Shown in pieces: positions 2,345 to 59,429 of a stretch of DNA of 64,000 nt (the stretch's first letter is position 1; each line of letters opens with the position of its first letter). Position numbers and translations under genes: made by a program. The notes under the pieces were generated by a model. The model made no database searches. It was not told the DNA's origin and saw only the letters and a list, made by a program, of their open reading frames with translations. This DNA is from a virus: UHGV virus genome UHGV-0038492; one strand, given 5' to 3'.

Positions 2345-2644
2345 ATGATTAAGTATATTGCAATCAATGTAAACTACGAACGTAACCCACGTTTTCGTTT
2401 TGAGTTACCTGAAACCAAAGCAACCATGGAGTTTAATCGTTACCTGTTAGAACATTCAAACACCAAAATCAATCACGGTAGATACTGGCTTATCTACTAT
2501 AATGCCCGTAATGAGTTACTGAAAGCCGTCAAGAAATCAGGTCAGTCAGAACTGTTAGCGAAACTGATGGCGTTTGATGGCGATCCTTTAGCAATAGGAA
2601 TTATGTTAGACCTTGCTATCAATAAAGACGAAATAGCATGGTGA
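2345..2644 (+). CDS. hypothetical protein
   Basis: 99-aa ORF with ATG and weak GGGA RBS; followed by bidirectional terminator. Confidence 0.55.
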   Translation: MIKYIAINVNYERNPRFRFELPETKATMEFNRYLLEHSNTKINHGRYWLIYYNARNELLKAVKKSGQSELLAKLMAFDGDPLAIGIMLDLAINKDEIAW

Positions 2645-2657
2645 AAAAAAGAAAGCT

Positions 2658-2704
2658 ACTCCGACCCCAGAAGGGTCGGAGTAAGCTCGAATTATTTTTT
2701 TTTT
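2658..2704. terminator. bidirectional terminator between convergent genes
   Basis: CTCCGACCC-CAGAA-GGGTCGGAG hairpin flanked by an A-run upstream and T11 downstream. Confidence 0.7.
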
Positions 2705-2709
2705 GCTAT

Positions 2710-5379
2710 TTAGAGAGTTTCATCGGTGTTGTCGTCTGTACCGGTATCCGTCTCGTCCGTGCCCTCAGTTGAAACTTCTTCTTCCGTTGTCGTATCGGTT
2801 TCCGTCGTTTCATCATCGGTCATGTCCAAGTCTTCATCACCGCCCAGATCGTCGCCACCAAAGTCGTTGCCCCCGCCGAAGTTATTGGCGTCTTCAGGAT
2901 TCAAATCAGCCGCTTTTGCTATCGTCTGAACTTTACCGGTCGCACGTTTTGCTAACTGAATCAGCGTCTTCGATGCTGCTGCAATTTCATCAGAAATCAT
3001 CTTGACGTTTTCACCACGTTTATCTTCATCGTAGATCAAATCAAACAGATCGGTTTCGATGCCCTGATTACGTAGCCAGTTGCGCGCGTAGAAGGTCTTA
3101 ACCATCGTCTTGAGGTCATCAGGTGACATTTCAATACCTTCGTTCTGAAGCATATTAGCAATGTCGTCCGTGACCACCAGATCTGCAAGTTTCTCGATAA
3201 ATTCATAGCGTTTATCGAAGAGATCAGCTTGAGATGCTGTTGCAGAAGTATCAGGCGGCGGCAAGGTGACCTTCATACCGTTTATAAACTTCGCCATATA
3301 CTCTGACGTTTGTTTTGTCATCTCTTCGCTAGTTACATTCGGATTCTGCTCACGGATATACTCAACGATAATACGGATGAGTTCTGCTTGCAGTTTCGGT
3401 GAAGCTTGCAGACTGTTTGTAACGTAGCGCGTAAGCGGGGTTGAGAGGATTTCCTGTTTCTTCACAATCTGTTGAGTAACCAACAGCGATTTAGAATAAA
3501 TCTGAGAAGCAAACTCCAGGTTCTCCGGGGTAAGTACAAGGTCAGGATCAACACACGCGATGTGACATGTACGGCGTAACAGGTTCTCGTCAATTTGTTG
3601 ATCAGGAACTTTATACTCCGGCGTGGTATCAGACACAGATACTTTGTGGCTGGCGTAGTAATCGTTACCCGTTACGTTAAAGGCAATCCCCGCGTTAGCC
3701 CCCATTGACCAGGCGTCGTTGATATCACCCCACATCGGCAGGCGACGATTGTAGGAATTAAGGATATCTGATTTAACTTGGTCAACAGTTTTTTGACCGT
3801 TTGCATCATCTGGTGACAGCTCAATGTCGTACTGCATGTGACGTGCCGAGTTCAGTACAGATGAGTTCATCGTTGCGAACAGCAGCGCCATCCTGACAGT
3901 AGAGATAATAAAGGAGCGCTCAGTAATAGAAACCCCGATACCGTCTTCGTTAAAGTCCGTTGCAAAATAGCACAAGTTATTAACCGGAATGTAAACCACC
4001 TGAGTATGACGTTTTGCGAGATGCCGCGCTAACAGAATACGACCGAATGTTTCGGTAATATTCATGCTGATTTCTGCGCCACCTAGTGCCTGACTTAATG
4101 CGCGTGCAAATTCGTTTTCAGCGATTTCACCACAACGTGTACTTAAACGGTTGGCGATTTCCGGGGTAATACGAGAAGTGTTCCCTAAGCCCAGATTAGA
4201 ACGGTTAATGATGCTGTCCGTCATCCCGTCGTTATTCAGGTAGTTCATAAAGTTCGCATCGCCGTACAGCGAGGAGCGAGCATTGATGAAGTTACCCATG
4301 TCATCTACGATGGTCAGATAACCGATAGGGTTACGAACGTCATCGCCAATTACCAGTGGCAGCGTTGACTCTGCGGGCAGTAAACGTTCGATGTATTCGA
4401 TTTTGTTATTCTCATCCATTGAGATAATAGGAATATCACCGTACGTTTGTGTTTTCGGTGTTGACTTATACGCCTCGTTTAAATCACCCAAGTTAATGAA
4501 CCCTTTTTCAGCAGCGTCACGCTGACGGTCATCGAAAGATTGATTAGGGTCGAACGGACTGCCACCGTTTGGTGTAGACGGCTTTTCATATGCGGCTTGC
4601 TCTAATTGCCCGTACAATCCCGTACGTGCGTTCTCATGCGCAATACGACGATACAAATCCGGCAGCATGGTAATGCGCGGGTTATCGGTAATCGTGATTT
4701 CCATCTGGAATTTATCCGAGAACATCGAATCGTGCTTACCGAAATCGATTTTCAATGTTTGTGGACCAGTAACGGCTCCGCGTAAACGGTTGAGAATTGA
4801 TTCTACACCAACTCGCTGCCCTTCTTTCGGCGCATTAATAGGCCCGAGGATACCAAGCTGTTGTTCGAAGAACGCCGTTTGAGAACGACGAATAGATTCA
4901 GTAGCGACCTTTGTATTCAGACCGAATAATTGGTCGAAGCCGGTATCCGAGATTATCATCACTGGACTTGCGCCTTTGGTTTTTAACGCATCGTAAATCC
5001 ACTGATATAATTTCTTAGGTAGCTGACGAATGTTATCGTGATAATCACGGGTCGGTGTCAGTAGCGCGTTACGCAGATCAATGGGGATGTCCGCGAAGTT
5101 GTCGTAAATCAACGTCGTGTTGATTAAGTCTTTTGTTGATAGCAGGCTCGAAGTTGCAATAGTAACGATTGTTTCGAGTTCAGGTAACGCATCAAAGATA
5201 CGTTCCGCATTTTTGATAGTACGAATACGTGAACTCGCAATTGCCGTGAGTTCTTGACGTGTTGGCGTAGAACCACCCTCGCTACGCGTACCGCGTTGTT
5301 GCTGAGGTGCTGGGCCCGTAGTTTTACGAAGAATTGCAGCTACGGCGGGGTCGCCCGTTAATTTACTAATATCGTCCAT
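2710..5379 (-). CDS. large hypothetical protein with strongly acidic C-terminal tail (possible virion protein)
   Basis: 889-aa ORF; last ~55 residues almost entirely D/E/T/G; no P-loop seen; a virion/portal-like role is speculation only. Confidence 0.8.
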   Translation of the reverse strand: MDDISKLTGDPAVAAILRKTTGPAPQQQRGTRSEGGSTPTRQELTAIASSRIRTIKNAERIFDALPELETIVTIATSSLLSTKDLINTTLIYDNFADIPIDLRNALLTPTRDYHDNIRQLPKKLYQWIYDALKTKGASPVMIISDTGFDQLFGLNTKVATESIRRSQTAFFEQQLGILGPINAPKEGQRVGVESILNRLRGAVTGPQTLKIDFGKHDSMFSDKFQMEITITDNPRITMLPDLYRRIAHENARTGLYGQLEQAAYEKPSTPNGGSPFDPNQSFDDRQRDAAEKGFINLGDLNEAYKSTPKTQTYGDIPIISMDENNKIEYIERLLPAESTLPLVIGDDVRNPIGYLTIVDDMGNFINARSSLYGDANFMNYLNNDGMTDSIINRSNLGLGNTSRITPEIANRLSTRCGEIAENEFARALSQALGGAEISMNITETFGRILLARHLAKRHTQVVYIPVNNLCYFATDFNEDGIGVSITERSFIISTVRMALLFATMNSSVLNSARHMQYDIELSPDDANGQKTVDQVKSDILNSYNRRLPMWGDINDAWSMGANAGIAFNVTGNDYYASHKVSVSDTTPEYKVPDQQIDENLLRRTCHIACVDPDLVLTPENLEFASQIYSKSLLVTQQIVKKQEILSTPLTRYVTNSLQASPKLQAELIRIIVEYIREQNPNVTSEEMTKQTSEYMAKFINGMKVTLPPPDTSATASQADLFDKRYEFIEKLADLVVTDDIANMLQNEGIEMSPDDLKTMVKTFYARNWLRNQGIETDLFDLIYDEDKRGENVKMISDEIAAASKTLIQLAKRATGKVQTIAKAADLNPEDANNFGGGNDFGGDDLGGDEDLDMTDDETTETDTTTEEEVSTEGTDETDTGTDDNTDETL

Positions 5380-49421: not shown

Positions 49422-49436
49422 GGAAAGGTGTGGGTA

Positions 49437-50102
49437 ATGGAAAAGCTTCAATATAAACGTTTAGATGATAAGTGGTTTGTATTAACGGAGGATTACCATT
49501 ATCCGTTTACGTTACGTGAGATTTATCACGACCACGTACACTTAGACCGTGCGGTTTATTTAACCGGTGTATTACCTGACACGCAACTGTGGTTAACCGC
49601 TCCGAAAGGGTTCGTAACGGACTTAGCGTCGATACCCGAACACTTACAGGGAATTTTCCATCCTGACGGGCCTTGGGCACCGGCTGCGTGTATTCACGAC
49701 TTGTTATACCAGAAATGCAGTACGGAACGTAGCTACCCTATGACGCCCGGTGGAAACGTTTCTCGCATTATCGATAAAGAGTTCGCTGACTTAACGTTTC
49801 TGCGTATTATGCAGTCGTTAGAAATCTCACCGTATATCTGCCAAACGTTTTATAAAGCCGTTGTAGGATTCGGTTGGGATGCTTACGTAGACCCTAACGC
49901 GAAACCGTCTTATACCACTAACGACTACCGTACGTTAGATTACAATCGAAACTATTTGTTCGTTCGCGAGTTTAAGGAGCCTGCTATTCCTGACCACGAA
50001 CGAGTTGATATCACCACAGGTTGTCCCGTTAATGTCAAATACCTGAACATTAAACGGGCTTTTCTGTCTGGGAGGGAAGATGTTTCATCCAAATCCGAGT
50101 AA
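49437..50102 (+). CDS. hypothetical protein (DUF1353-like, tentative)
   Basis: AAGGAAAGG RBS before ATG 49437; segment GFVTDLASIP resembles DUF1353-type phage proteins. Confidence 0.55.
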   Translation: MEKLQYKRLDDKWFVLTEDYHYPFTLREIYHDHVHLDRAVYLTGVLPDTQLWLTAPKGFVTDLASIPEHLQGIFHPDGPWAPAACIHDLLYQKCSTERSYPMTPGGNVSRIIDKEFADLTFLRIMQSLEISPYICQTFYKAVVGFGWDAYVDPNAKPSYTTNDYRTLDYNRNYLFVREFKEPAIPDHERVDITTGCPVNVKYLNIKRAFLSGREDVSSKSE

Positions 50103-51195: not shown

Positions 51196-51334
51196 AATCT
51201 CATCCTTATTAAAATTAAGAAAAATTAATTTTTTCAGGTTAGCGCTTACTGCCAACCGTCATATCTATATTTTAGGAAATGTCTAAAATAACATTCTTAT
51301 GCAATCCACCCCTGCCACTTACGAGGTAAAAACG

Positions 51335-51871
51335 ATGGCTAAAGCCTTCAAACAGCAGCTCATCGAAGCTGTAATTGCTAAAAACTCAGAAACCGCTTCT
51401 AATCTGACGGTTGCTGATGTTGATTTTGGCGCTGTTGCTGAGTTCAGCGGAGACGCTGGCCGCAACACTAAAATTACCCTGACCGCCAAGGCAGAAAGCC
51501 AGAACTTCAAAGGCGAGAAAGAATTCCACTACATTCGTCTGGCTTCTCAAGACCTGATCGGTGCTAAAGCTTACGAACAAGCCGGTAGCCTCGATCTGGA
51601 AAACTCTGCCATTGTAACCAAACTGAACGAAGAAATGGTTACTAAAGGTTATGTCGATGACGAGTTTGCAGAGAGCGAACTGTCCATTGAGAAATCCGAA
51701 GGCGACAGCGGTGCTAAAGTTTACACTGTCAAAGTAAGCGAAGGTCACATCAAATTCCTGGCTGGTACCATTGCCACCTTCACTTATTCCAACCCAGCTC
51801 CTGAGAAGGTAGCACTGAGCGGTCTGGAAGGTGAACTTGATGGCTTCACTGCGCCGGGTGTCGGTGGCTAA
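51335..51871 (+). CDS. hypothetical protein, paralog 1 (C-terminal GELDGFTA motif)
   Basis: GAGGT RBS before ATG 51335; host-like high-expression codon choice; paralogous to ORF 51943. Confidence 0.65.
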   Translation: MAKAFKQQLIEAVIAKNSETASNLTVADVDFGAVAEFSGDAGRNTKITLTAKAESQNFKGEKEFHYIRLASQDLIGAKAYEQAGSLDLENSAIVTKLNEEMVTKGYVDDEFAESELSIEKSEGDSGAKVYTVKVSEGHIKFLAGTIATFTYSNPAPEKVALSGLEGELDGFTAPGVGG

Positions 51872-51883
51872 GTAAGTTAAATC

Positions 51884-51904
51884 GGGGGGGGGGTGACCTC
51901 CCCC
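51884..51904 (+). other. G10...C5 homopolymer hairpin between the GELDGFTA paralogs
   Basis: ATCGGGGGGGGGG TGACCT CCCCCGAT about 40 nt before ATG 51943. Confidence 0.6.
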
Positions 51905-51942
51905 GATATTTCTTTAACTCGTATTATTAAGGACCTAAGATA

Positions 51943-52473
51943 ATGGCCGCTACTAACCAGATGATGTTGGTCGCGCTTTATAATGCTGCTAACACTGAGC
52001 TACCGCATCAGATTACAGATAAAGAAGTGTCCTTTGGTTTGCCTGCTGCGCTGGAAGGCGAAGGTAAGAATACCAAAGTTACCATGACCGCACTACCGGG
52101 TTCTGAGAATTTCAAAGGCGAAATCGAACTGCATTACGATCGTCTGGAGCCAGGTGTTGTAGGACGGATTGAACTAACTGACGATCTGTCTCGCTGGGTT
52201 CAAGAAAATGAACTCCGTGCTTGGTTACAGTATTACATCAACAAAGTAAAACCTGACGACGCTATCGCACCAGGCGACGTTGTGTACAACACCGAAGACC
52301 AGAAAGACGAACATGAAAACGTCACTCTGCGTACCGTGACGTGCACCGTTACTGAAAAGAACCTCCGTTATAAACCAGGTGTAATGGCAACTTTCGTAAT
52401 TACACCGAAGGTTGTCGATAATCGTATTGACCTGGCCACCACCAACGGTGAGTTGGACGGCTTTACTGCTTAA
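51943..52473 (+). CDS. hypothetical protein, paralog 2 (C-terminal GELDGFTA motif)
   Basis: AAGGA RBS; shares TK(I/V)T(L/M)TA...ENFKGE and the C-terminal motif with ORF 51335. Confidence 0.65.
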   Translation: MAATNQMMLVALYNAANTELPHQITDKEVSFGLPAALEGEGKNTKVTMTALPGSENFKGEIELHYDRLEPGVVGRIELTDDLSRWVQENELRAWLQYYINKVKPDDAIAPGDVVYNTEDQKDEHENVTLRTVTCTVTEKNLRYKPGVMATFVITPKVVDNRIDLATTNGELDGFTA

Positions 52474-52510: not shown

Positions 52511-52546
52511 TACCTACCTCCGTAAAGGAGGTAGGTATTTTTTTTT
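52511..52546. terminator. bidirectional terminator between convergent genes
   Basis: TACCTACCTCC-GTAAA-GGAGGTAGGTA flanked by an A-run and T9. Confidence 0.75.
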
Positions 52547-52554
52547 GCCGCTAA

Positions 52555-53226
52555 TTACAGCCCTTGCTCTAATGCAAACGCTTTAATTGAATCGTAATCA
52601 CGGGCTTCGGCCCAAGCTCTGACTTCTTTTTTCTGTTCCGTCATTGCCTGATGCAGTTGCTGGTCGCGTTGCACAATAGCACCCAGCAGTGTTTTGCACT
52701 GCTCTAACGTAAACGGTTCGATACGGGTGTTGTTGGCCGTTAACCAATACGCTGGCGCGGTTTCTGACTGAATATAACGACTCAGTGCTACCTGTGACTT
52801 CTCATCTGCCTGGAAAGTGAAATCACCCACTTGAATCTCGGCATACCGCGCATCCTGATAACGGAATTCCAATGCGCTTAGGATTTTCTGAACATCGGTA
52901 AAGATATACCGCACAGTGGAGCGTAAACCCGTACGAATCTCTTCCAGGTCAATTCCCAACGTGTCGTTAACAAAGTCTTTCGCTTTCTGTAACGTAAATC
53001 GTGCTTCGATTTCAGACATGTCGTAGTTACGCATTTGTTCCAATGCTTCACGATCGGACATCCCATCAATCAATTTATAGTGCAGTAACGCACAAAAACC
53101 CGTACGACCATGATCTTCGCTACCGATTTTTTCCATATAGTTACCATGGCGGTCAATCGGTAAATCGTGCTCAAAATAACGACGACGGATTTCTTCTTTC
53201 GTTAAGCCTTCACCAGTAGCAGACAT
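52555..53226 (-). CDS. hypothetical protein, last gene of the fibre/radical-SAM operon
   Basis: 223-aa ORF overlapping the upstream gene by 25 nt; terminator downstream. Confidence 0.6.
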   Translation of the reverse strand: MSATGEGLTKEEIRRRYFEHDLPIDRHGNYMEKIGSEDHGRTGFCALLHYKLIDGMSDREALEQMRNYDMSEIEARFTLQKAKDFVNDTLGIDLEEIRTGLRSTVRYIFTDVQKILSALEFRYQDARYAEIQVGDFTFQADEKSQVALSRYIQSETAPAYWLTANNTRIEPFTLEQCKTLLGAIVQRDQQLHQAMTEQKKEVRAWAEARDYDSIKAFALEQGL

Positions 53227-53774
53227 TCATCGTCTCCTTTAATCAATCCTAATTCGATTAACAGTTCAAAATCGATATGACGGAATCTTGTATCAAAATC
53301 CGATTCCCAATCGATGCGGATACCCTGGCACTCTTCTGATGTTAGCTCGGGAAAAATTACGGTATTAAATTTCTCACGCTCATCGTAAAACCCATCAATC
53401 GGTGAGTTCGGGTTACGCGTTGCGAAAATAGTAATACCAGGGAAAGATAATGCTAACACAGTGATAGATTCTGCGCTGGGCTCACTTAAAGAGCGGCGTA
53501 GAAACGCAATTTTGTGGCGTGGGAAGTCCAATACGCGTTCTTCAAACCCTGGATTACGTTTTTCGATTTCCGCTACCGACAGGTCAGTAAGTTCGGTGCA
53601 ATACATTGGGATGATTACAGTCACGCCGTGGCGAATCAGTAAACGTTTTACGTCATCGGTAAAATCTTCGCCGTTAATCATCACGTAACAACCGAACAGC
53701 TTACTGTTTTCCAGAAACTTATCCAGAAGTCGAATTCTACGCTTCGTAATATTGTTGATCAGAATTGGTTTCAT
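53202..53774 (-). CDS. hypothetical protein co-operonic with radical-SAM enzymes
   Basis: 190-aa ORF overlapping both neighbours. Confidence 0.6.
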   Translation of the reverse strand: MKPILINNITKRRIRLLDKFLENSKLFGCYVMINGEDFTDDVKRLLIRHGVTVIIPMYCTELTDLSVAEIEKRNPGFEERVLDFPRHKIAFLRRSLSEPSAESITVLALSFPGITIFATRNPNSPIDGFYDEREKFNTVIFPELTSEECQGIRIDWESDFDTRFRHIDFELLIELGLIKGDDECLLLVKA

Positions 53775-55059
53775 CTTTGGCTTCTCTTAATAATTTTTCC
53801 TTTTGGGCGCGTTCACGAACACAGCGTGGGCAATAACACATACTCGTGTCGTGGAACGCTTTTGCTGACGTCGTACCCATCTTCTGTTTCCAGTATTCCG
53901 CCACCATCAGTTTCGCTGTCGTCCACCCGCACTGACGTCGCTCAGCGTGATACGCTTTACGGTCTTCCAGTGTCCCTTCACCGTTTTCGTAAGAAGCCGC
54001 AGCGCAGCTACCACAAGCGTGTTTCATCGGACAACCTAAGCACGTCTCTGGATAGTTGGTATATTGTGTTTGAATCTCTTCTAACAATTTACCGTTGTCC
54101 AGGCTGACGAATTCCCGACCTACCAACTCAAATACCGCAGAACGTGATGTTACGGTTGACATAAAGCGATTGCAACCGAAGATCTTACGGTCAAAACCTA
54201 AACACGTCATGTGTGTTAATGTCCCACAGAACGGACGTAAACGTTCTGGGTTCAACCGCACCGTGTCATTATAAAGTAATTGATCACGCCAGTTCGGTTC
54301 CCAAATCGTATCGAAATCCAACCCTTCTGGGATGATGTGCGATAAGATATTACGTGGGTTGGTGTGTAATCCTTTCTCGACCCAATAATCAATCACATCC
54401 ATCATCTGCAATGCAATTGAAGTAGCCATCCCACGTGGCATAATGTCTTCGAAGGTTACGTTGCCGGAGATAGTTCCGCCACCAGTAATATCAATTAATG
54501 ACTTCATTCCGGCAGCATAGTACGGTAACGTTTCTAACGTAAAGGTCGCCTTTACGCCAAGCTCTGCAATGCCAACCTCTTTTAAGTAGTTATAGCCTCG
54601 TACTGCGGCTTCGTAAGAACCCTGGCGCGTCGTTGTAAAGATACGATAACGGTCATGGGACTCAGGTAAGCCGTCAATTGAAACCCCAACCGAAAGTTTG
54701 TCTTTCCAACGCTCTACGATCTCACGGTTCAACGGGCGATCTAACAACGTCCCGTTTGTGGAAATACTAAACATAAACGGCCGATTATGTTCTTTACACA
54801 ACTGCTCGGCGGTTTCAAATGCAGCCAGCAGCAACTTAGGCTGCATGAACGGTTCACCACCGATAATGTCAATAATAACTTCAACATTCGGTTCGTTTTT
54901 ATCGCGTTCAAAACAGGCGTGCAAGAAATCAACAATATCTGCCGCTTTGTTGTTACGCGGGTACTTACGTTCGTAACAATATTCGCAGTCCAGGTTACAC
55001 GAAAGGTTCGTTACAATCTGATACGTTAGCTGCTTAGGGAATTCATTTACCTGACTCAT
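53737..55059 (-). CDS. radical SAM enzyme with C-terminal SPASM-like Cys cluster (anSME/peptide-maturase-like)
   Basis: N-terminal CNLDCEYC (CxxxCxxC), GGEPFM SAM-binding motif, and C-terminal cysteines (CLGCPMKHACGSC...CYCPRC) typical of auxiliary Fe-S clusters. Confidence 0.75.
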   Translation of the reverse strand: MSQVNEFPKQLTYQIVTNLSCNLDCEYCYERKYPRNNKAADIVDFLHACFERDKNEPNVEVIIDIIGGEPFMQPKLLLAAFETAEQLCKEHNRPFMFSISTNGTLLDRPLNREIVERWKDKLSVGVSIDGLPESHDRYRIFTTTRQGSYEAAVRGYNYLKEVGIAELGVKATFTLETLPYYAAGMKSLIDITGGGTISGNVTFEDIMPRGMATSIALQMMDVIDYWVEKGLHTNPRNILSHIIPEGLDFDTIWEPNWRDQLLYNDTVRLNPERLRPFCGTLTHMTCLGFDRKIFGCNRFMSTVTSRSAVFELVGREFVSLDNGKLLEEIQTQYTNYPETCLGCPMKHACGSCAAASYENGEGTLEDRKAYHAERRQCGWTTAKLMVAEYWKQKMGTTSAKAFHDTSMCYCPRCVRERAQKEKLLREAKDETNSDQQYYEA

Positions 55060-55966
55060 TTGCCGCCCCTCTATTACGACCTGCCATCACTACGCGACGA
55101 ATATATTCGTACGCCTCTACACCGATAGAGAAGGCCAGTTGGTTACACCCGGATTCCAGTACGTTAGGTGCGTTCTGGAGCTGGTGCTCACCACCGTCTG
55201 CATTAATCCAGAGACTTTCGCTGCAAACGTTACACCCTTCTTCAAACACTTTACTTACCGTAAAACCACATTCACGACTGTTTACTACATTCAGTCGTTC
55301 AATGTTGTCCTGAACCCGATAGTAGCCGTAAATAAAGTTCATGACGTGGTCAGGTGATAAAGGCTTTGGCATTTTCGCATCTAAGAGTAACGTCATTGCT
55401 CGGAAACCGTAATGGTAAATCGCGCTGTGCAGCTGAATAATATCTTCATGCCAACGTTTATCCCCCAAACGGTCCCGTGTCAAGACACCCCAAGTCTGGA
55501 CATTATCCAGCTCGTAGATCGTTTCCAGTGCTTCGTAACAGCCTTCGTCAATAAAGCGCATAAATGGACGCTCAGACGACTTAAACCCATCGATGCTAAC
55601 GTAGACATTGTCAAACTGTTTTAGCAACGGGAGATGCGATTTACGCATCTTTAAGCCATTGGTATACAACTGGTGTTTGAGTTCTGGACGAATCACTTTT
55701 AATTCGTCAACAAACGCCTCAATTTTACGGGTTGCCAATAGTGGCTCACCACCCGTCCACTGAATTTCGGTAATGGTTGGATTAGCTTCCAGCGCTTCCA
55801 AAATTCGCTCACGTTGAAACTCTCGCGGAGAATCTTCACGATTCATGTAATAGGCTCCACCGCAGAAGCTACAATCCAGGTTACACTTGGACGTAGCGAC
55901 TACGGACAATACGGTGGGTTTATCGTATAAACGATTCGATAACCTTGGTTCTGCATTGGTTGTCAT
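55043..55966 (-). CDS. radical SAM enzyme, paralog of the 440-aa enzyme
   Basis: CNLDCSFC and GGEPLL motifs; C-terminal Cys pairs (CGFTVSKVFEEGCNVC...GC); overlaps downstream gene by 17 nt. Confidence 0.75.
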   Translation of the reverse strand: MTTNAEPRLSNRLYDKPTVLSVVATSKCNLDCSFCGGAYYMNREDSPREFQRERILEALEANPTITEIQWTGGEPLLATRKIEAFVDELKVIRPELKHQLYTNGLKMRKSHLPLLKQFDNVYVSIDGFKSSERPFMRFIDEGCYEALETIYELDNVQTWGVLTRDRLGDKRWHEDIIQLHSAIYHYGFRAMTLLLDAKMPKPLSPDHVMNFIYGYYRVQDNIERLNVVNSRECGFTVSKVFEEGCNVCSESLWINADGGEHQLQNAPNVLESGCNQLAFSIGVEAYEYIRRVVMAGRNRGAANESGK

Positions 55967-55987
55967 TGCAGGTGACTCCGGTCGTTT

Positions 55988-56887
55988 TTAAATATAATCA
56001 ATGGCGAACAAAGGATCGTCGTCTACGTTAGCACCAGGGGTTAACAAGAATGGAGAGTTATACGCTTCCAAAATACGGTTAAGGTCTTTATAACGGACAT
56101 TTAAACGTTCTAAATCCGCTAACGTTACGTTACGGTCCAACACCGCCGACACTGCTGCTTTCTCTTCGTCAGTTAACGTGACTTTCGTCATTAAGAAACT
56201 AACGAGTTTTGCCAGATCCGCTTCTGTTGACGGATGCTCGCCGATACGCGTTTGAATCAAATGCTGCATCCATGGTTTACGGATGCGTTTTGTGATCTCA
56301 TGTTCATCCGTTAGGGCAACCCACACGGAACGTTCACGATCCCACACGAACTTATAGCTATACGCCATTAAATCCGCTAAACAATTAATCCCTAAGGCTT
56401 CGTACCCTTCAATTTCAATATACGATTCCGTATCGAAATAGTTCTTCGTTTCTGGTGTTACCAGGGTAAAGAAATACGGGAACGAGCCCAAGTAATCTGG
56501 TGACCACCAACGACGGGCAACCGGTTTTGCACCCATTTCTTCAAACGGGGTAAAGAACAATTCCATATCCACGGAGTTATTCAAAATCCCATCACTAAAG
56601 AAATATTTACCTGCAACCAATTTACCACGCAACTCAGAGTCACCGGTAAATACCACTACACTTTCTGCCGTCAGATCACGAATCTTAAACGTATTTTCTA
56701 CACGATAGTTTTTACGATCGGTAAAGAAACGTCCGCGCACTTTAGGCCATTCGCCTGGCAATTGCGTCAGCAGACGAACTTCATCTGCTAAGTGTGCACG
56801 TACGGAATCAGGGGAAGAAATGTGAAGTGGATGATTGAAAATCGTTTTGTACGCTAAATGTAAATCATTCTTCATTGATTGCTCCAA
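55988..56887 (-). CDS. hypothetical protein between Cys-rich proteins and radical-SAM enzymes
   Basis: 299-aa ORF; no motif recognised. Confidence 0.6.
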   Translation of the reverse strand: MEQSMKNDLHLAYKTIFNHPLHISSPDSVRAHLADEVRLLTQLPGEWPKVRGRFFTDRKNYRVENTFKIRDLTAESVVVFTGDSELRGKLVAGKYFFSDGILNNSVDMELFFTPFEEMGAKPVARRWWSPDYLGSFPYFFTLVTPETKNYFDTESYIEIEGYEALGINCLADLMAYSYKFVWDRERSVWVALTDEHEITKRIRKPWMQHLIQTRIGEHPSTEADLAKLVSFLMTKVTLTDEEKAAVSAVLDRNVTLADLERLNVRYKDLNRILEAYNSPFLLTPGANVDDDPLFAIDYI

Positions 56888-56910
56888 CTATTTTACGGTC
56901 AAACGGACGT

Positions 56911-57120
56911 TCAGGGTATAGAACCCACCCCGCCATTGTCTGCCGGTAACTTGAAACTCAGCAGTAAACCCATTCGATTTACTCGGTTGCTGGTTAATCG
57001 CCATACTACCGCCGGAATTCTTAAAACCTCTAAAGAGATAGAAGCAGAAGTCGCATTACCGATTGAGTCTATCTTAAAACTAGCCGCATCTGTAAAATTG
57101 ACAGTAATACCATCACCCAT
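56911..57120 (-). CDS. possible small ORF filling the gap in the operon
   Basis: 69-aa ORF spaced about 22 nt from both neighbours in a tightly packed operon; weak RBS. Confidence 0.3.
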   Translation of the reverse strand: MGDGITVNFTDAASFKIDSIGNATSASISLEVLRIPAVVWRLTSNRVNRMGLLLSFKLPADNGGVGSIP

Positions 57121-57142
57121 CGCAACTCGGGGAAAGGCTTAC

Positions 57143-57349
57143 TTACCGCCCCCCTGCTCCCTTACTACAGCTACCGCTGCACGACCAGCTACATCCACCG
57201 TTACAGTTGTAGTGGCTTAAAGGTAAACCGGCAAGGTTATTGGTTGAAGACACGGTACCCTGGTTTGCAATATAGTTGTTTGCGTTAGCGGTCGTAATAT
57301 ACCCTTCCGCTGTTACTAAACGATCACGAAGGTTCTTAAGGCTAATCAC
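57143..57349 (-). CDS. Cys-rich protein, short copy 3
   Basis: GTG start 6 nt after GGGAGG (which is also the last two codons of the upstream gene); leader ISLKNLRDRL... then NCNGGCSWSCSGSCSKGAGGR. Confidence 0.55.
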   Translation of the reverse strand: MISLKNLRDRLVTAEGYITTANANNYIANQGTVSSTNNLAGLPLSHYNCNGGCSWSCSGSCSKGAGGR

Positions 57350-57351
57350 AA

Positions 57352-57750
57352 TTACCTCCCAGAACACCCACCGGAACAAGAACCTGAACAGCCTGAAGAA
57401 CAGTTCCCTGTACACGCGTTAGAACAGCTCCCCGTGCAACTTCCTGAACACCCACCGGAGCAGGTATTCGAACATCCGCTACAGCCCGCGCTACAACCTG
57501 ATACGCAGTTTGCAGAACACGAGGAACCACAACCACCGGATGCGTTTCCTGTGCAGCCACCAGAACAACTCGAACACGTCCAGCTACAACTACCTCCGCA
57601 GTCGTAGTGATTGCGGGCCTGTCCTCCGAATAAGTCTGCGTTGTTTGTCGCTTTCCCGCGAATATAGTTTTGTACTGCACCCGTATTCTTCAATGCAGTG
57701 CTGTCAATGTTATTTAACCGCGCTTGTAGCGCAGGTAATCCAATTGCCAT
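57352..57750 (-). CDS. Cys/Gly/Ser-rich protein, copy 2
   Basis: 132 aa; ~50-aa N-terminal leader-like region ending DCGG, then about 80 residues with 20 Cys in a C-x2-3 periodicity. Confidence 0.7.
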   Translation of the reverse strand: MAIGLPALQARLNNIDSTALKNTGAVQNYIRGKATNNADLFGGQARNHYDCGGSCSWTCSSCSGGCTGNASGGCGSSCSANCVSGCSAGCSGCSNTCSGGCSGSCTGSCSNACTGNCSSGCSGSCSGGCSGR

Positions 57751-57760
57751 TTTTCACCTC

Positions 57761-58156
57761 TTAGGTTGGGCCAGAACAGCCGCCAGAGCAGGCACCAGAA
57801 CAACCCGTAGAACAACGGCCTGAGCAAGCACCCCCACAGGTTCCGCTACAACCTGAACACCCACCTGAACACGTTGAGCTACATCCAGTACATTGGTTAC
57901 CGCACGCAGAGGAGCAGCTGCCTACACACACAGACGTACAAGTACCCGAACAGCTCGTACAACCATGCGTACAGCCGTTTGAGCACGTCCAGCTACAACT
58001 ACCTCCGCAGTCTAACCGGTTTGGCGTCCAACCCGAAAATGTGTCGGCTGCATTATGTGCTTTCGACGCAACTTGCGGATCAACACGTGGGCCAGTTGCC
58101 ATTTGGTTCTCTACGTTGGTGATTCGGTCACGTACGTTTTTAACACTGATCGCCAT
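57761..58156 (-). CDS. Cys/Gly/Ser-rich protein, copy 1
   Basis: AAGGA RBS before ATG 58156; leader MAISVKNVRDRITNV...LDCGG then 21 Cys in about 80 residues. Confidence 0.7.
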   Translation of the reverse strand: MAISVKNVRDRITNVENQMATGPRVDPQVASKAHNAADTFSGWTPNRLDCGGSCSWTCSNGCTHGCTSCSGTCTSVCVGSCSSACGNQCTGCSSTCSGGCSGCSGTCGGACSGRCSTGCSGACSGGCSGPT

Positions 58157-58223
58157 CACGTATCCTTAAAATAAAAAAGAATGGAGGACTACGTCCATAA
58201 ACATAGTTCCTCCTGTAATTAAA

Positions 58224-59429
58224 TTATTTCGTACCCGCTTCCGCCTGTACGTCATCACGAGACGTCAGGTTAGCGTTAACGTGTACTGCGGCCTGAACCA
58301 CGCCACCGTATTTCTTGTGGAGATAACCGGTGTGTGGGTTATCTGCCGCAATGTGGTTTTGTAGGTTTTGGTTCGCTTGACTGATTGCGTTCGTGTTATT
58401 GTTAACCTGCTGTTTAAGCGCATCCAGGCTTTGTTGTACCTGATTGATTTTCTGATCGGTTTCTTGACCCTGTTGCTCTAACGCGTCAACACGCTGAATA
58501 ACCTGATTCAGTTTTGTGTTTAAATCGTTGATGTTCTTTTGCAGCTGTAACACTAACGAGTTCAGGTTCGCTAACGCTAAGGCCATTTTCTGGTAGTTTT
58601 GAGCAACCACGTTAAGTTGGTCGTTCCACGCTTCCAGAGAGTTGACAACAGCGTCAATACGTTTACCTAAAGCTTCGTCCGCTTTCTTCAGTGCATTGAT
58701 TTCCGTAATCGTTGCATCGATAGCAGACTGAACGTCACGAATAAGCGCACGGATTTCAGTTTCTCTTAACCCGTTAACCTGGTGAATATCAAGATGGTGA
58801 ACGTTACCCGTTGCGTTGATGTGTGCATTTAAAGCATCTAAGAAGTCATTTTTCAGACTTTCTAAAATCGCTTTAATGTTCTCTAACTGTACCGCGTCAC
58901 CAGAACTGATCGCATCTTTAATCCCCGCCAATACGGTGATGATATATTCAAAACCGTAGATGTCACCCACGTCTTTATACGTCGGTGCAGACGGGAATGT
59001 ATCCGGTACGTTACGTAAGTCTTTAAACGCAATCGTACGGTTATCGAGGTTTAACTCAGCAATCGCCTGTTCGATAGCCACGATGTTCGCAGACTGTGGA
59101 CCACCAACGACCTGCGCAGATACCGTAATATCTGTTGGAATCGCTGTGTTAGTGACCACCACCGCCATAACAATCTCGCGGTTTTTAGTCAGCTTTTCAT
59201 AAGTCGGGTGTGCAAAAATCAACTCATAATCGGTACCACGTTCGTAGGTTGCTTCCGGTCGGTTAGCAACGCGTAAACGGAACGTGTCCGCAAAGAACGG
59301 ACCATCAGGAAAAGCAAAAGCACGGTTTACTTTACCTGTACCTAACGTAATCTGACGCTCCACAGCGTTAGACGTTAGCGAGCCCGTTAAATCTAAAGGA
59401 TATTGATAAACAATGGAGGCCATGGCCAC
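58224..59429 (-). CDS. tail fibre protein with long coiled-coil
   Basis: 401 aa; central heptad-rich Asn/Gln/Leu region typical of fibre shafts. Confidence 0.7.
   Translation of the reverse strand: MAMASIVYQYPLDLTGSLTSNAVERQITLGTGKVNRAFAFPDGPFFADTFRLRVANRPEATYERGTDYELIFAHPTYEKLTKNREIVMAVVVTNTAIPTDITVSAQVVGGPQSANIVAIEQAIAELNLDNRTIAFKDLRNVPDTFPSAPTYKDVGDIYGFEYIITVLAGIKDAISSGDAVQLENIKAILESLKNDFLDALNAHINATGNVHHLDIHQVNGLRETEIRALIRDVQSAIDATITEINALKKADEALGKRIDAVVNSLEAWNDQLNVVAQNYQKMALALANLNSLVLQLQKNINDLNTKLNQVIQRVDALEQQGQETDQKINQVQQSLDALKQQVNNNTNAISQANQNLQNHIAADNPHTGYLHKKYGGVVQAAVHVNANLTSRDDVQAEAGTK

Follow-up and report, generated by a model that had tools for sequence, protein, structure and literature searches.

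A putative radical-SAM maturation cassette for cysteine-rich tail-fibre tips in an SPN3US-like jumbo phage

The window analysed here is a stretch of 64,000 nucleotides (nt) from the virus genome UHGV-0038492, which is, judging by its sequence, that of a jumbo phage like Salmonella phage SPN3US. On the minus strand, directly downstream of two genes for virion fibre or baseplate proteins, three small open reading frames (ORFs) encode the cysteine-rich proteins A, B, and C, and these are followed by an accessory gene and by two radical S-adenosylmethionine (SAM) enzymes, which we call rSAM-2 and rSAM-1 (Table 1). We lean towards the view that this locus is a portable cassette for the maturation of fibre tips. 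The parts of this view are held with different degrees of confidence: the enzymes very probably act on the Cys tract of the small proteins; the small proteins are likely to be parts of the virion, either fibre tips or mini-fibres; and the chemistry of rSAM-1, by analogy with its closest characterised relatives, has about an even chance of being thioether cross-linking. A wider proposal is made here only tentatively, namely that radical-SAM enzymes cross-link tail-fibre tips through about 20 thioether/C-S links per chain, possibly between three chains, and that TIGR04114/TIGR04115 represent a widespread fibre maturation system of phages and prophages.

The putative substrates share a simple architecture. 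Protein A consists of an N-terminal part of about 50 amino acids (aa) followed by a 78-aa CXXX tract, and protein C resembles A and B in the type of its N-terminal part and in its junction but has no long tract. The tract has a period of four: the Cys-to-Cys spacing is 4 in 220 of 285 intervals (77%) and 3 in 60 of 285 (21%). Its consensus is C-[S/T]-G-[G/S/T], with mostly Ser or Thr at position +1 after the Cys and Gly at +2. In composition, C (27%), S (27%), G (26%), and T (10%) make up 90% of the tract residues, Asp contributes 0.5%, and Lys and Arg are almost absent. A junction motif, NAxxLGGQ....YxC...CSWxC, is common to protein B and to fibre-like proteins at three loci of other phages (L008, L011, and L027). 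Against the NCBIfam model TIGR04114, which is only 18 positions long (cut-off 20 bits), B scores 20.7, A 14.4, and C 12.0 bits. The earlier note on this DNA had counted 21, 20, and 4 Cys in the three proteins and had listed the enzyme motifs CNLDCEYC, CNLDCSFC, and GGEP, all correctly. The ORFs that it described do exist, and three of their starts can be refined: the best start of protein A is the ATG at 58156; protein C, listed at 57143–57415, begins at the GTG at 57349, in agreement with its SPN3US orthologue, and has 68 rather than 90 aa; and the 299-aa ORF of the accessory gene more likely begins at the ATG at 56875, which gives 295 aa.

Several observations bear on whether these unusual frames are genuine. 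By six-frame translation, A and B were recovered with 20–23 Cys in every genome across at least five jumbo-phage genera, and orthologues of C are found in SPN3US, SPAsTU, and Machina. In comparisons with the SPN3US and Machina orthologues, the differences at codon positions 1/2/3 number 37/24/66, 27/30/82, 35/20/82, and 30/31/89, and synonymous codon changes exceed non-synonymous ones; the same excess is seen within the tract alone in the one pair compared in this way (A and SPN3US A). Because the differences fall mainly at the third codon position and synonymous changes are in excess, the Cys-rich frame is, by these counts, under purifying selection, and the conservation in related phages on which the earlier note had made its reading depend is thereby established. 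Together with the ribosome-binding sites and the conserved N-termini, the third-position variation identifies the Cys frame as the real one. Overlapping V/A-rich and P/E/Q-rich ORFs (57342–57680 on the minus strand, 57434–57607 and 57874–58122 on the plus strand) were considered and rejected as by-products of the TGY-AGY-GGN codon periodicity.

Both enzymes belong to the radical-SAM superfamily, as had been claimed: against Pfam Radical_SAM (PF04055, cut-off 29.5 bits), rSAM-1 scores 57 bits and rSAM-2 scores 53 bits. The motifs are SCNLDCEYC and GGEPFM in rSAM-1, and KCNLDCSFC and GGEPLL in rSAM-2. The best NCBIfam match of rSAM-1 is TIGR04115 (116.9 bits, with model positions 3–345 of 359 aligned), and the second is PapB (NF047865, 115.9 bits). 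Further matches are the geopeptide maturase, HxsB, and YhhB, with QhpD, SCIFF, and CcpM lower, all below their cut-offs; the SCIFF/CteB model TIGR03974, for example, gives 58.3 bits with a cut-off of 425. The nearest structure in the PDB is CteB (5wgg). In this case, the alignment begins at CteB residue 105 and rSAM-1 residue 19, and since the cluster motif of rSAM-1 already begins at residue 21, it has no CteB-type N-terminal recognition domain. In 12 homologues, down to 29% identity, the cluster residues C21, C25, and C28 are invariant, as are C278, C286, C296, C340, C343, C349, C352, and C377. The latter include a C-terminal Cys pattern of the SPASM type, a subgroup marked by a 7-Cys motif for two auxiliary [4Fe-4S] clusters (C340-x2-C343-x5-C349-x2-C352 with C278, C286, C296, and C377), and these auxiliary cysteines align with the SPASM region of a viral homologue, L091. 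On these features, rSAM-1 is classed as a SPASM-type peptide or protein maturase. Thioether formation is suggested for it because its best families, with TIGR04115 and PapB at the top, are all maturases of Cys peptides and CteB is its nearest structure. In the jumbo phages, rSAM-1 also carries a C-terminal extension (residues ~395–440) with a conserved C-x-C-x2-C (CYCPRC) and a terminal (Q/E)(Y/F)Y, which is absent from the prophage homologues.

The second enzyme, rSAM-2, has C28, C32, and C35 as its invariant cluster cysteines, together with C245, C248, and C274. Its nearest solved structure is SkfB (6efn), which is itself thioether-forming and thus speaks for the proposed chemistry. The number of small radical-SAM genes varies among close relatives, as is seen from an extra rSAM-2 paralogue of 303 aa that lies between Cys-rich A and B (2576–3487) in L026 (IMGVR_UViG_3300045988_078609), the closest relative of the window, with an rSAM-1 that is 93% identical. 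Three radical-SAM genes are present in L011.

The association of enzyme and tract is not confined to jumbo phages. In an unbiased protein search, the jumbo-phage orthologues ranked first, and seven contigs encoding more distant homologues (28–40% identity) were inspected. At six of these seven loci, a Cys-tailed protein in a phage-like context adjoins the enzyme; there is none at L015. In five of those six, an accessory-protein homologue is encoded as well, as is a further radical-SAM enzyme. The second enzyme is paired with the rSAM-1 relative in L008, L009, L011, L012, and L014, whereas L013 has the accessory homologue but a single radical-SAM gene. In five loci, the gene product encoded between the tract protein and the enzymes is a homologue of the accessory protein of the window (E 3e-13 to 4e-6, with about 60 sequences searched).

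Two of these loci show the setting especially clearly. In Deferribacter abyssi (L008), a lambda J-type tail protein is followed by the enzyme, a 302-aa fibre-like protein, a 250-aa protein, and the second radical-SAM enzyme. The 302-aa protein carries HxHDDRYYTE repeats and 29 Cys, 28 of them in the tract, and it ends in "KATNADQLGGQAGSYYRCSDCSWTCSSSC...". In a prophage of Campylobacter pinnipediorum (L009), the genes lie among P2-type baseplate genes, in the order W, J, I, gpH-type tail fibre, 250-aa protein, two enzymes, DUF1353, sheath, and tube. Here the tract protein is the P2 gpH-type tail fibre itself (384 aa; PF12571; phrog_327, E 1e-55), which ends in "GCNGCSGSCSGSCSSGCTACSGCSGSCSG...". 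Four further metagenomic contigs encode fibre-like or small proteins with the same type of tract at their end, beside the enzyme, and the tract protein of L011 also has fibre-type repeats (HxHDxRYYTE). In other phages, tract and junction stand at the C-terminus of fibre-like proteins of 258–568 aa.

A broader survey, in which the viral contigs of IMG/VR were scanned with the enzyme alignment, gave 80 loci with a relative of rSAM-1 (24–93% identity). At 76 of the 80, a run of 6–63 Cys with CXXX or CXX spacing lies on the same strand within 6 kb, so that the neighbourhood which the earlier note had proposed to look for in other phages does recur there. The TIGR04115 cut-off is passed by the enzymes of L030 (431 bits), L091 (447 bits), and L072 (370 bits), and that of L045 (309 bits) lies just under it. 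At the three TIGR04115-type loci with informative PHROG matches (L045, L072, and L091), the enzyme is placed between baseplate-wedge and tail-fibre genes. Directly upstream of TIGR04115-type enzymes, a helical protein of ~105 aa is encoded at 56 IMG/VR loci (including L045, 5610–5933), often preceded by a protein of ~195 aa (33 loci). The helical protein may be a substrate-binding partner of the TIGR04115 branch.

The remaining products of the cassette are less easily classified. From its position, the accessory protein is a candidate for a substrate-presenting or fibre-assembly factor. The idea that it is a fusion of the ~195-aa and ~105-aa proteins was rejected, as the hhalign probability was below 1% for both. 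The 190-aa protein, which is encoded in jumbo phages only, was likewise considered as a sequence homologue of the adjoining enzymes and rejected (hhalign E 0.003, probability 10% against rSAM-2); its predicted relation to the radical-SAM enzymes is one of fold alone. The DUF4376 protein has weak PHROG matches to tail and tail-fibre families, and its gene is also found near the radical-SAM pair in L012.

Published data on SPN3US virions are relevant at this point. The virions contain gp167–gp173, none of which is flagged as a head protein (PMC5694885, Supp Table 1). Among them, gp168–gp170 are candidates for baseplate or tail-fibre proteins (PMC5694885), and gp168 is both found in virions and essential (PMC5694885, main table and Supp Table 1). 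The homologues of the enzymes, the accessory protein, and the two last products of the unit, gp161–gp165, are not among the virion proteins (PMC5694885, Supp Table 1), which fits a role of the enzymes and the accessory protein as assembly factors. The Cys-rich proteins themselves were bound to escape this analysis, as the searched database did not include their sequences: in the RefSeq and GenBank records of SPN3US, gp166 is called in the wrong, V/A-rich frame and the other two Cys-rich ORFs are unannotated. Moreover, standard tryptic mass spectrometry (MS) is blind to the tracts because they contain almost no Lys or Arg. The correct SPN3US genes lie at complement 143191–143397, 143413–143817, and 143828–144220 of NC_027402 (L001 12167–13196), and their N-terminal parts would yield tryptic peptides such as VQIVEANMATGPR and LNTIDANALK. 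The problem is a general one. In phage Phobos (L006 7988–8809), the Cys-rich region is annotated on the opposite strand, and tblastn finds the N-terminal part of protein A in 60 phage records, many of which have no annotated gene there.

On the basis of these observations, we suggest how the cassette might work. The three small proteins would be mini-fibres or fibre-tip subunits, each built from the N-terminal part, the junction (NAxxLGGQ....Y.C...CSW.C), and about twenty C-[S/T]-G-x repeats where the tract is present. They would be synthesised late, at the same time as the large fibre and baseplate proteins, and while they are still in the cytoplasm and unassembled, factors that do not enter the virion and whose genes follow directly downstream would modify them. 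By analogy with CteB, PapB, and QhpD, rSAM-1 would hold two auxiliary SPASM clusters besides its one SAM cluster. Its cleavage of SAM would give a 5'-deoxyadenosyl radical; this radical would remove a hydrogen from a carbon atom in a nearby residue, and that carbon would then bond to the Cys sulfur. Repeated along the tract, this reaction would produce a ladder of thioethers. The other enzyme, rSAM-2, with its three extra Cys, might introduce a second modification or serve other positions. The accessory protein, in the slot of a tail-fibre chaperone, could replace the missing N-terminal recognition domain and would probably hold or present the tract. The product would be a covalently locked rod at the distal end of the fibre, insensitive to redox conditions and resistant to proteases. 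A rationale can also be offered: about 60 thiols per trimer would oxidise chaotically outside the cell, and thioethers formed in the cytoplasm would give a rigid, redox-inert tip instead.

Several points weigh against this proposal. (i) rSAM-1, at about 117 bits, is far under the cut-offs of both TIGR04115 (350) and PapB (340). (ii) The Pfam SPASM model PF13186 has no match to rSAM-1, even at E <=10; the L091 homologue scores 21.6 bits with a cut-off of 21.5. (iii) The Asp that serves as acceptor in the PapB system is nearly absent from the tract, at the 0.5% given above. (iv) Neither a known fold nor a recognition element can be made out in the accessory protein, and its role is guessed from its position. 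(v) No virion analysis has yet detected the small Cys-rich proteins, their sequences being outside the SPN3US MS database. (vi) The structure models are of monomers only, so that the trimer state and links within or between chains lie beyond their scope. (vii) We found no experiment that shows modification of such tracts, the chemistry of TIGR04115 is, as far as we could find, itself uncharacterised, and a literature search returned no paper that links these enzymes to fibres or describes the tract, the matches being incidental.

The alternative that survives best, although we consider it unlikely, keeps the tract as the substrate and changes the reaction. The enzymes would modify the tract without cross-linking it, by formylglycine-type oxidation of Cys or Ser as in anSME, by epimerisation, by C-methylation, or through glycyl-type radicals, and would thereby alter the surface chemistry of the tip. 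An anSME appears among the PDB matches of rSAM-1, and the anSME model TIGR03942 (cut-off 349) is matched by rSAM-1 with 59.2 bits and by rSAM-2 with 29.4; the Ser/Thr and Gly that follow each Cys could be targets; and two or three different proteins of the radical-SAM fold suggest more than one reaction. Against this, the top families and structures (TIGR04115/PapB, CteB, and SkfB) are those of thioether formers, and what is invariant in the substrate is the Cys periodicity, not the Ser or Gly.

A second alternative, which we regard as improbable, is that the tract folds by itself into a tip that binds metal ions or Fe-S clusters or is laced by disulfides, and that the enzymes act elsewhere (for example, on another fibre protein) or serve as a scaffold only. 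Phage tips do use metal ions, one example being the His-Fe needle of the T4 gp37 fibre tip. Cysteines as densely spaced as these, in CxxC and CxxxC, can chelate metals, and HxH repeats precede the tract in L008 and L011. Enzyme and tract are, however, tightly linked irrespective of lineage, at 76 of 80 loci and in six of the seven distant contexts, and a reading in which the tract is not the substrate can hardly account for this. In addition, the NCBIfam curators define TIGR04114 as a radical-SAM target, and Pro and hydrophobic residues, as are usual in ferredoxin-like sites, are missing from the tract.

It is still less probable, to a degree that leaves it very little room, that the three small proteins give rise to a diffusible ribosomally synthesised and post-translationally modified peptide (RiPP), such as a ranthipeptide- or sactipeptide-like toxin or signal, which would be freed at lysis, with the N-terminal 50 aa as leader. 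The 130-aa proteins do have a leader-plus-core architecture, the enzyme families are those of RiPP maturases, and the proteins have escaped detection in virions for the reason already given. Such a product is hard to reconcile with tract and junction being fused to fibre-like proteins of 258–568 aa and to one recognisable tail fibre (384 aa), or with the N-terminal motif NAxxLGG, which the small proteins share with fibre-like proteins. The genes lie within a virion structural operon in every lineage, and Pfam, NCBIfam, and PHROGs reveal no leader peptidase, protease, exporter, or transporter among the operon products. The earlier note had proposed a maturase and substrate set yielding either a cross-linked component associated with the fibre or a RiPP-like product; the former draws strong support from comparative genomics, and the latter is disfavoured. 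Finally, the annotation-level view that such radical-SAM genes enhance host metabolism (PMC6614189, citing Lee et al. 2011; similarly, for another phage, PMC8541153), with the Cys-rich ORFs as incidental, can be given almost no weight, because the genes are embedded in a structural operon and accompany the tract in different types of phage and because no metabolic radical-SAM family comes near its cut-off: rSAM-2 scores 43.7 bits for MoaA (cut-off 284), 35.5 for QueE (260), and 33.9 for NrdG2 (131), and neither QueE, NrdG, nor MoaA is among the best 25 NCBIfam matches of rSAM-1. Orthology to QueE or NrdG without an auxiliary cluster domain had been named in the earlier note as the outcome that would overturn its reading; this outcome did not arise, since the scores are far below the cut-offs and the auxiliary Cys are present in rSAM-1.

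The putative fibre-tip cassette itself is part of a single, conserved gene block. Across the region, the DNA of the window is about 72% identical to SPN3US and its relatives in nucleotide comparison, and a protein search finds the exact rSAM-1 sequence in metagenome assemblies only. The same gene order occurs in Seoulvirus, Machinavirus, Derbicusvirus, and Wellingtonvirus genomes, and synteny of the module extends over no fewer than 60 records of jumbo phages. The earlier note had described genes that overlap or sit less than 25 nt apart in one transcription unit, bounded at 53737–58159. The last four genes, from rSAM-2 to the DUF4376 gene, are indeed joined by overlaps of 17, 38, and 25 nt (the accessory gene is not part of these); a gap of 64 nt precedes Cys-rich A, and a spacer of 267 nt follows Cys-rich C. 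Despite this gap and spacer, the single-operon reading holds, because no terminator-like site lies inside the gene block, the first hairpin being that at 52511–52537. The limits do not hold, as the unit runs on to 52555.

Table 1. Features of the cassette and its surroundings in the 64,000-nt window
Feature	Coordinates	Strand	Remarks
Fibre/baseplate protein, 1501 aa	59464..63969	-	Positional counterpart of SPN3US gp168; syntenic in SPN3US and four other genera
Coiled-coil virion protein, 401 aa, SPN3US gp167 homologue	58224..59429	-	phrog_2163 'virion structural protein', E 1e-102
Cys-rich A, 131 aa, 21 Cys	57761..58156	-	ATG 58156, AAGGA ribosome-binding site; phrog_6085 E 2e-40
Cys-rich B, 132 aa, 20 Cys, junction motif NADLFGGQARNHYDCGGSCSWTC	57352..57750	-	TIGR04114 20.7 bits
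Cys-rich C, 68 aa, 4 Cys (CNGGCSWSCSGSC)	57143..57349	-	GTG 57349 after GGGAGG; phrog_6085 E 4e-24
Spacer, 267 nt, holding a 69-aa ORF (56911–57120)	56876..57142		Between Cys-rich C and accessory gene
Accessory protein, 295 aa, SPN3US gp165 homologue	55988..56875	-	Conserved slot between Cys-tailed fibre gene and enzymes
rSAM-2, 307 aa, gp164 homologue	55043..55966	-	CxxxCxxC, GGE, three conserved C-terminal Cys; Pfam Radical_SAM
rSAM-1, 440 aa, gp163 homologue	53737..55059	-	Predicted SPASM-type radical-SAM maturase, without N-terminal recognition domain
190-aa protein, gp162 homologue	53202..53774	-	Radical-SAM-like partial TIM-barrel fold (predicted), no cluster motif
DUF4376 protein, 223 aa, gp161 homologue, last gene of the unit	52555..53226	-	PF14301 E 1e-11
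Hairpin between convergent genes, likely end of transcription unit	52511..52537		11-bp stem; T-run on + side only

The spacer is missing in SPN3US, Machina, and L026, and 141 nt of it are common to L017 at 91% identity. Its 69-aa ORF has no Pfam match, and the spacer is probably non-coding or lineage-specific. Convergent with the cassette are two adjacent paralogous DUF7941 genes on the plus strand (51299–51871 and 51943–52473), and a hairpin with a G10 run (51881–51907) follows the first of them. About 2.5 kb from the cassette, also on the plus strand, a gene at 49428–50102 encodes a DUF1353 protein (PF07087, E 1e-15), the homologue of SPN3US gp157, which RefSeq names 'tail assembly chaperone'. 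In the Campylobacter prophage, a DUF1353 gene (L009 8068–8433) directly follows both enzymes. This proximity may be a coincidence or may indicate a further associated factor.

If the proposed maturation of fibre tips is correct, it would be the first case in which radical-SAM enzymes modify a structural protein of a virus post-translationally, and radical chemistry would join the ways in which virus particles are built, with a C-S-stitched tip indifferent to redox conditions and proteases. Such a tip could explain stability in gut or soil, and it would make available both a novel material made of protein and a means of engineering phages for therapy. Genes described as 'boosters' of host metabolism, and a family catalogued as 'peptide' maturases, would then become maturases of structural proteins, and a CXXX-repeat system usually read as a RiPP system would span jumbo myoviruses, prophages (with P2-type baseplate genes or a lambda J-type tail protein), and many uncultured phages of the gut and the environment. 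The locus also points to a blind spot of annotation and proteomics, since gene calling goes astray at the Cys-rich genes of SPN3US, Phobos, and numerous further records, where they are missed or are assigned to a false frame or to the opposite strand. With its amber-mutant genetics and deep proteomics, SPN3US makes the hypothesis directly testable.

Among known systems, the closest is that of TIGR04115 with TIGR04114/TIGR04117, in which a SPASM-type enzyme without an N-terminal recognition domain likewise stands beside a protein with a long tandem CXXX repeat. In the window, A and B are encoded in the same operon, about 2 kb upstream of rSAM-1. The window differs in adding a second radical-SAM enzyme, the 295-aa accessory protein, and a cluster-less protein of the radical-SAM fold, and in lacking the ~105-aa helical partner that 56 TIGR04115-type loci have; its tract is richer in S and G than TIGR04115-type tracts and poor in D, N, and K. 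The systems of PapB/freyrasin, CteB/SCIFF, and SkfB are similar in that radical-SAM enzymes with SPASM or twitch clusters act on Cys-rich repeats and form thioethers from Cys sulfur to carbon. However, PapB uses Asp as acceptor (Cys-X3-Asp motifs), which the tract of the window does not provide, and the substrates of ranthipeptide and sactipeptide maturases are short secreted peptides, whereas the substrate proposed here appears to be, or to be fused to, a structural fibre protein.

Two further systems are instructive for what the enzymes might do. QhpD is a SPASM radical-SAM enzyme that forms several intramolecular Cys thioethers in a structural subunit, with no peptide being released. Against its model TIGR03906 (cut-off 453), rSAM-1 scores 61 bits, and five of the seven viral relatives scanned score 76–115 bits. 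Its substrate QhpC has 3 cross-links, to Asp and Glu, and no phage context, compared with about 20 repeats in the window. In the HxsB/HxsC (His-Xaa-Ser) system, a large SPASM enzyme and a small second radical-SAM enzyme stand side by side and the substrate has short-period repeats, as in the window (rSAM-1 against HxsB, 76.5 bits with a cut-off of 370; rSAM-2 against HxsC, 38.9 bits with a cut-off of 268); the repeat is a different one, and HxsA and HxsD are absent.

The gene arrangement also recalls tail-fibre helpers. In the T4 gp37 needle with gp38/gp57A, and in P2 gpH with gpG, the C-terminal fibre tip needs non-virion helpers encoded directly downstream, and in the Campylobacter prophage the accessory gene occupies the same chaperone position after the gpH-type fibre as in the P2 gpH/gpG arrangement. 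The known helpers act as folding chaperones, not as radical enzymes, and the tips known so far owe their stability to metal ions and interdigitated beta-structure. No similarity in sequence or fold to these systems was detected. The earlier note did not recognise this as a described module of phage tail operons. In part this judgement stands, as the functional setting, with a virion tail-fibre protein as the substrate, appears from the comparisons made here to be undescribed. The kind of system is already catalogued, with its enzyme and substrate families in TIGR04115/TIGR04114 and in PHROGs 1802 and 6085. The version in the window, with three substrates, an accessory protein, a second enzyme, and a pseudo-enzyme, falls under the membership cut-offs and is distinct in its architecture.

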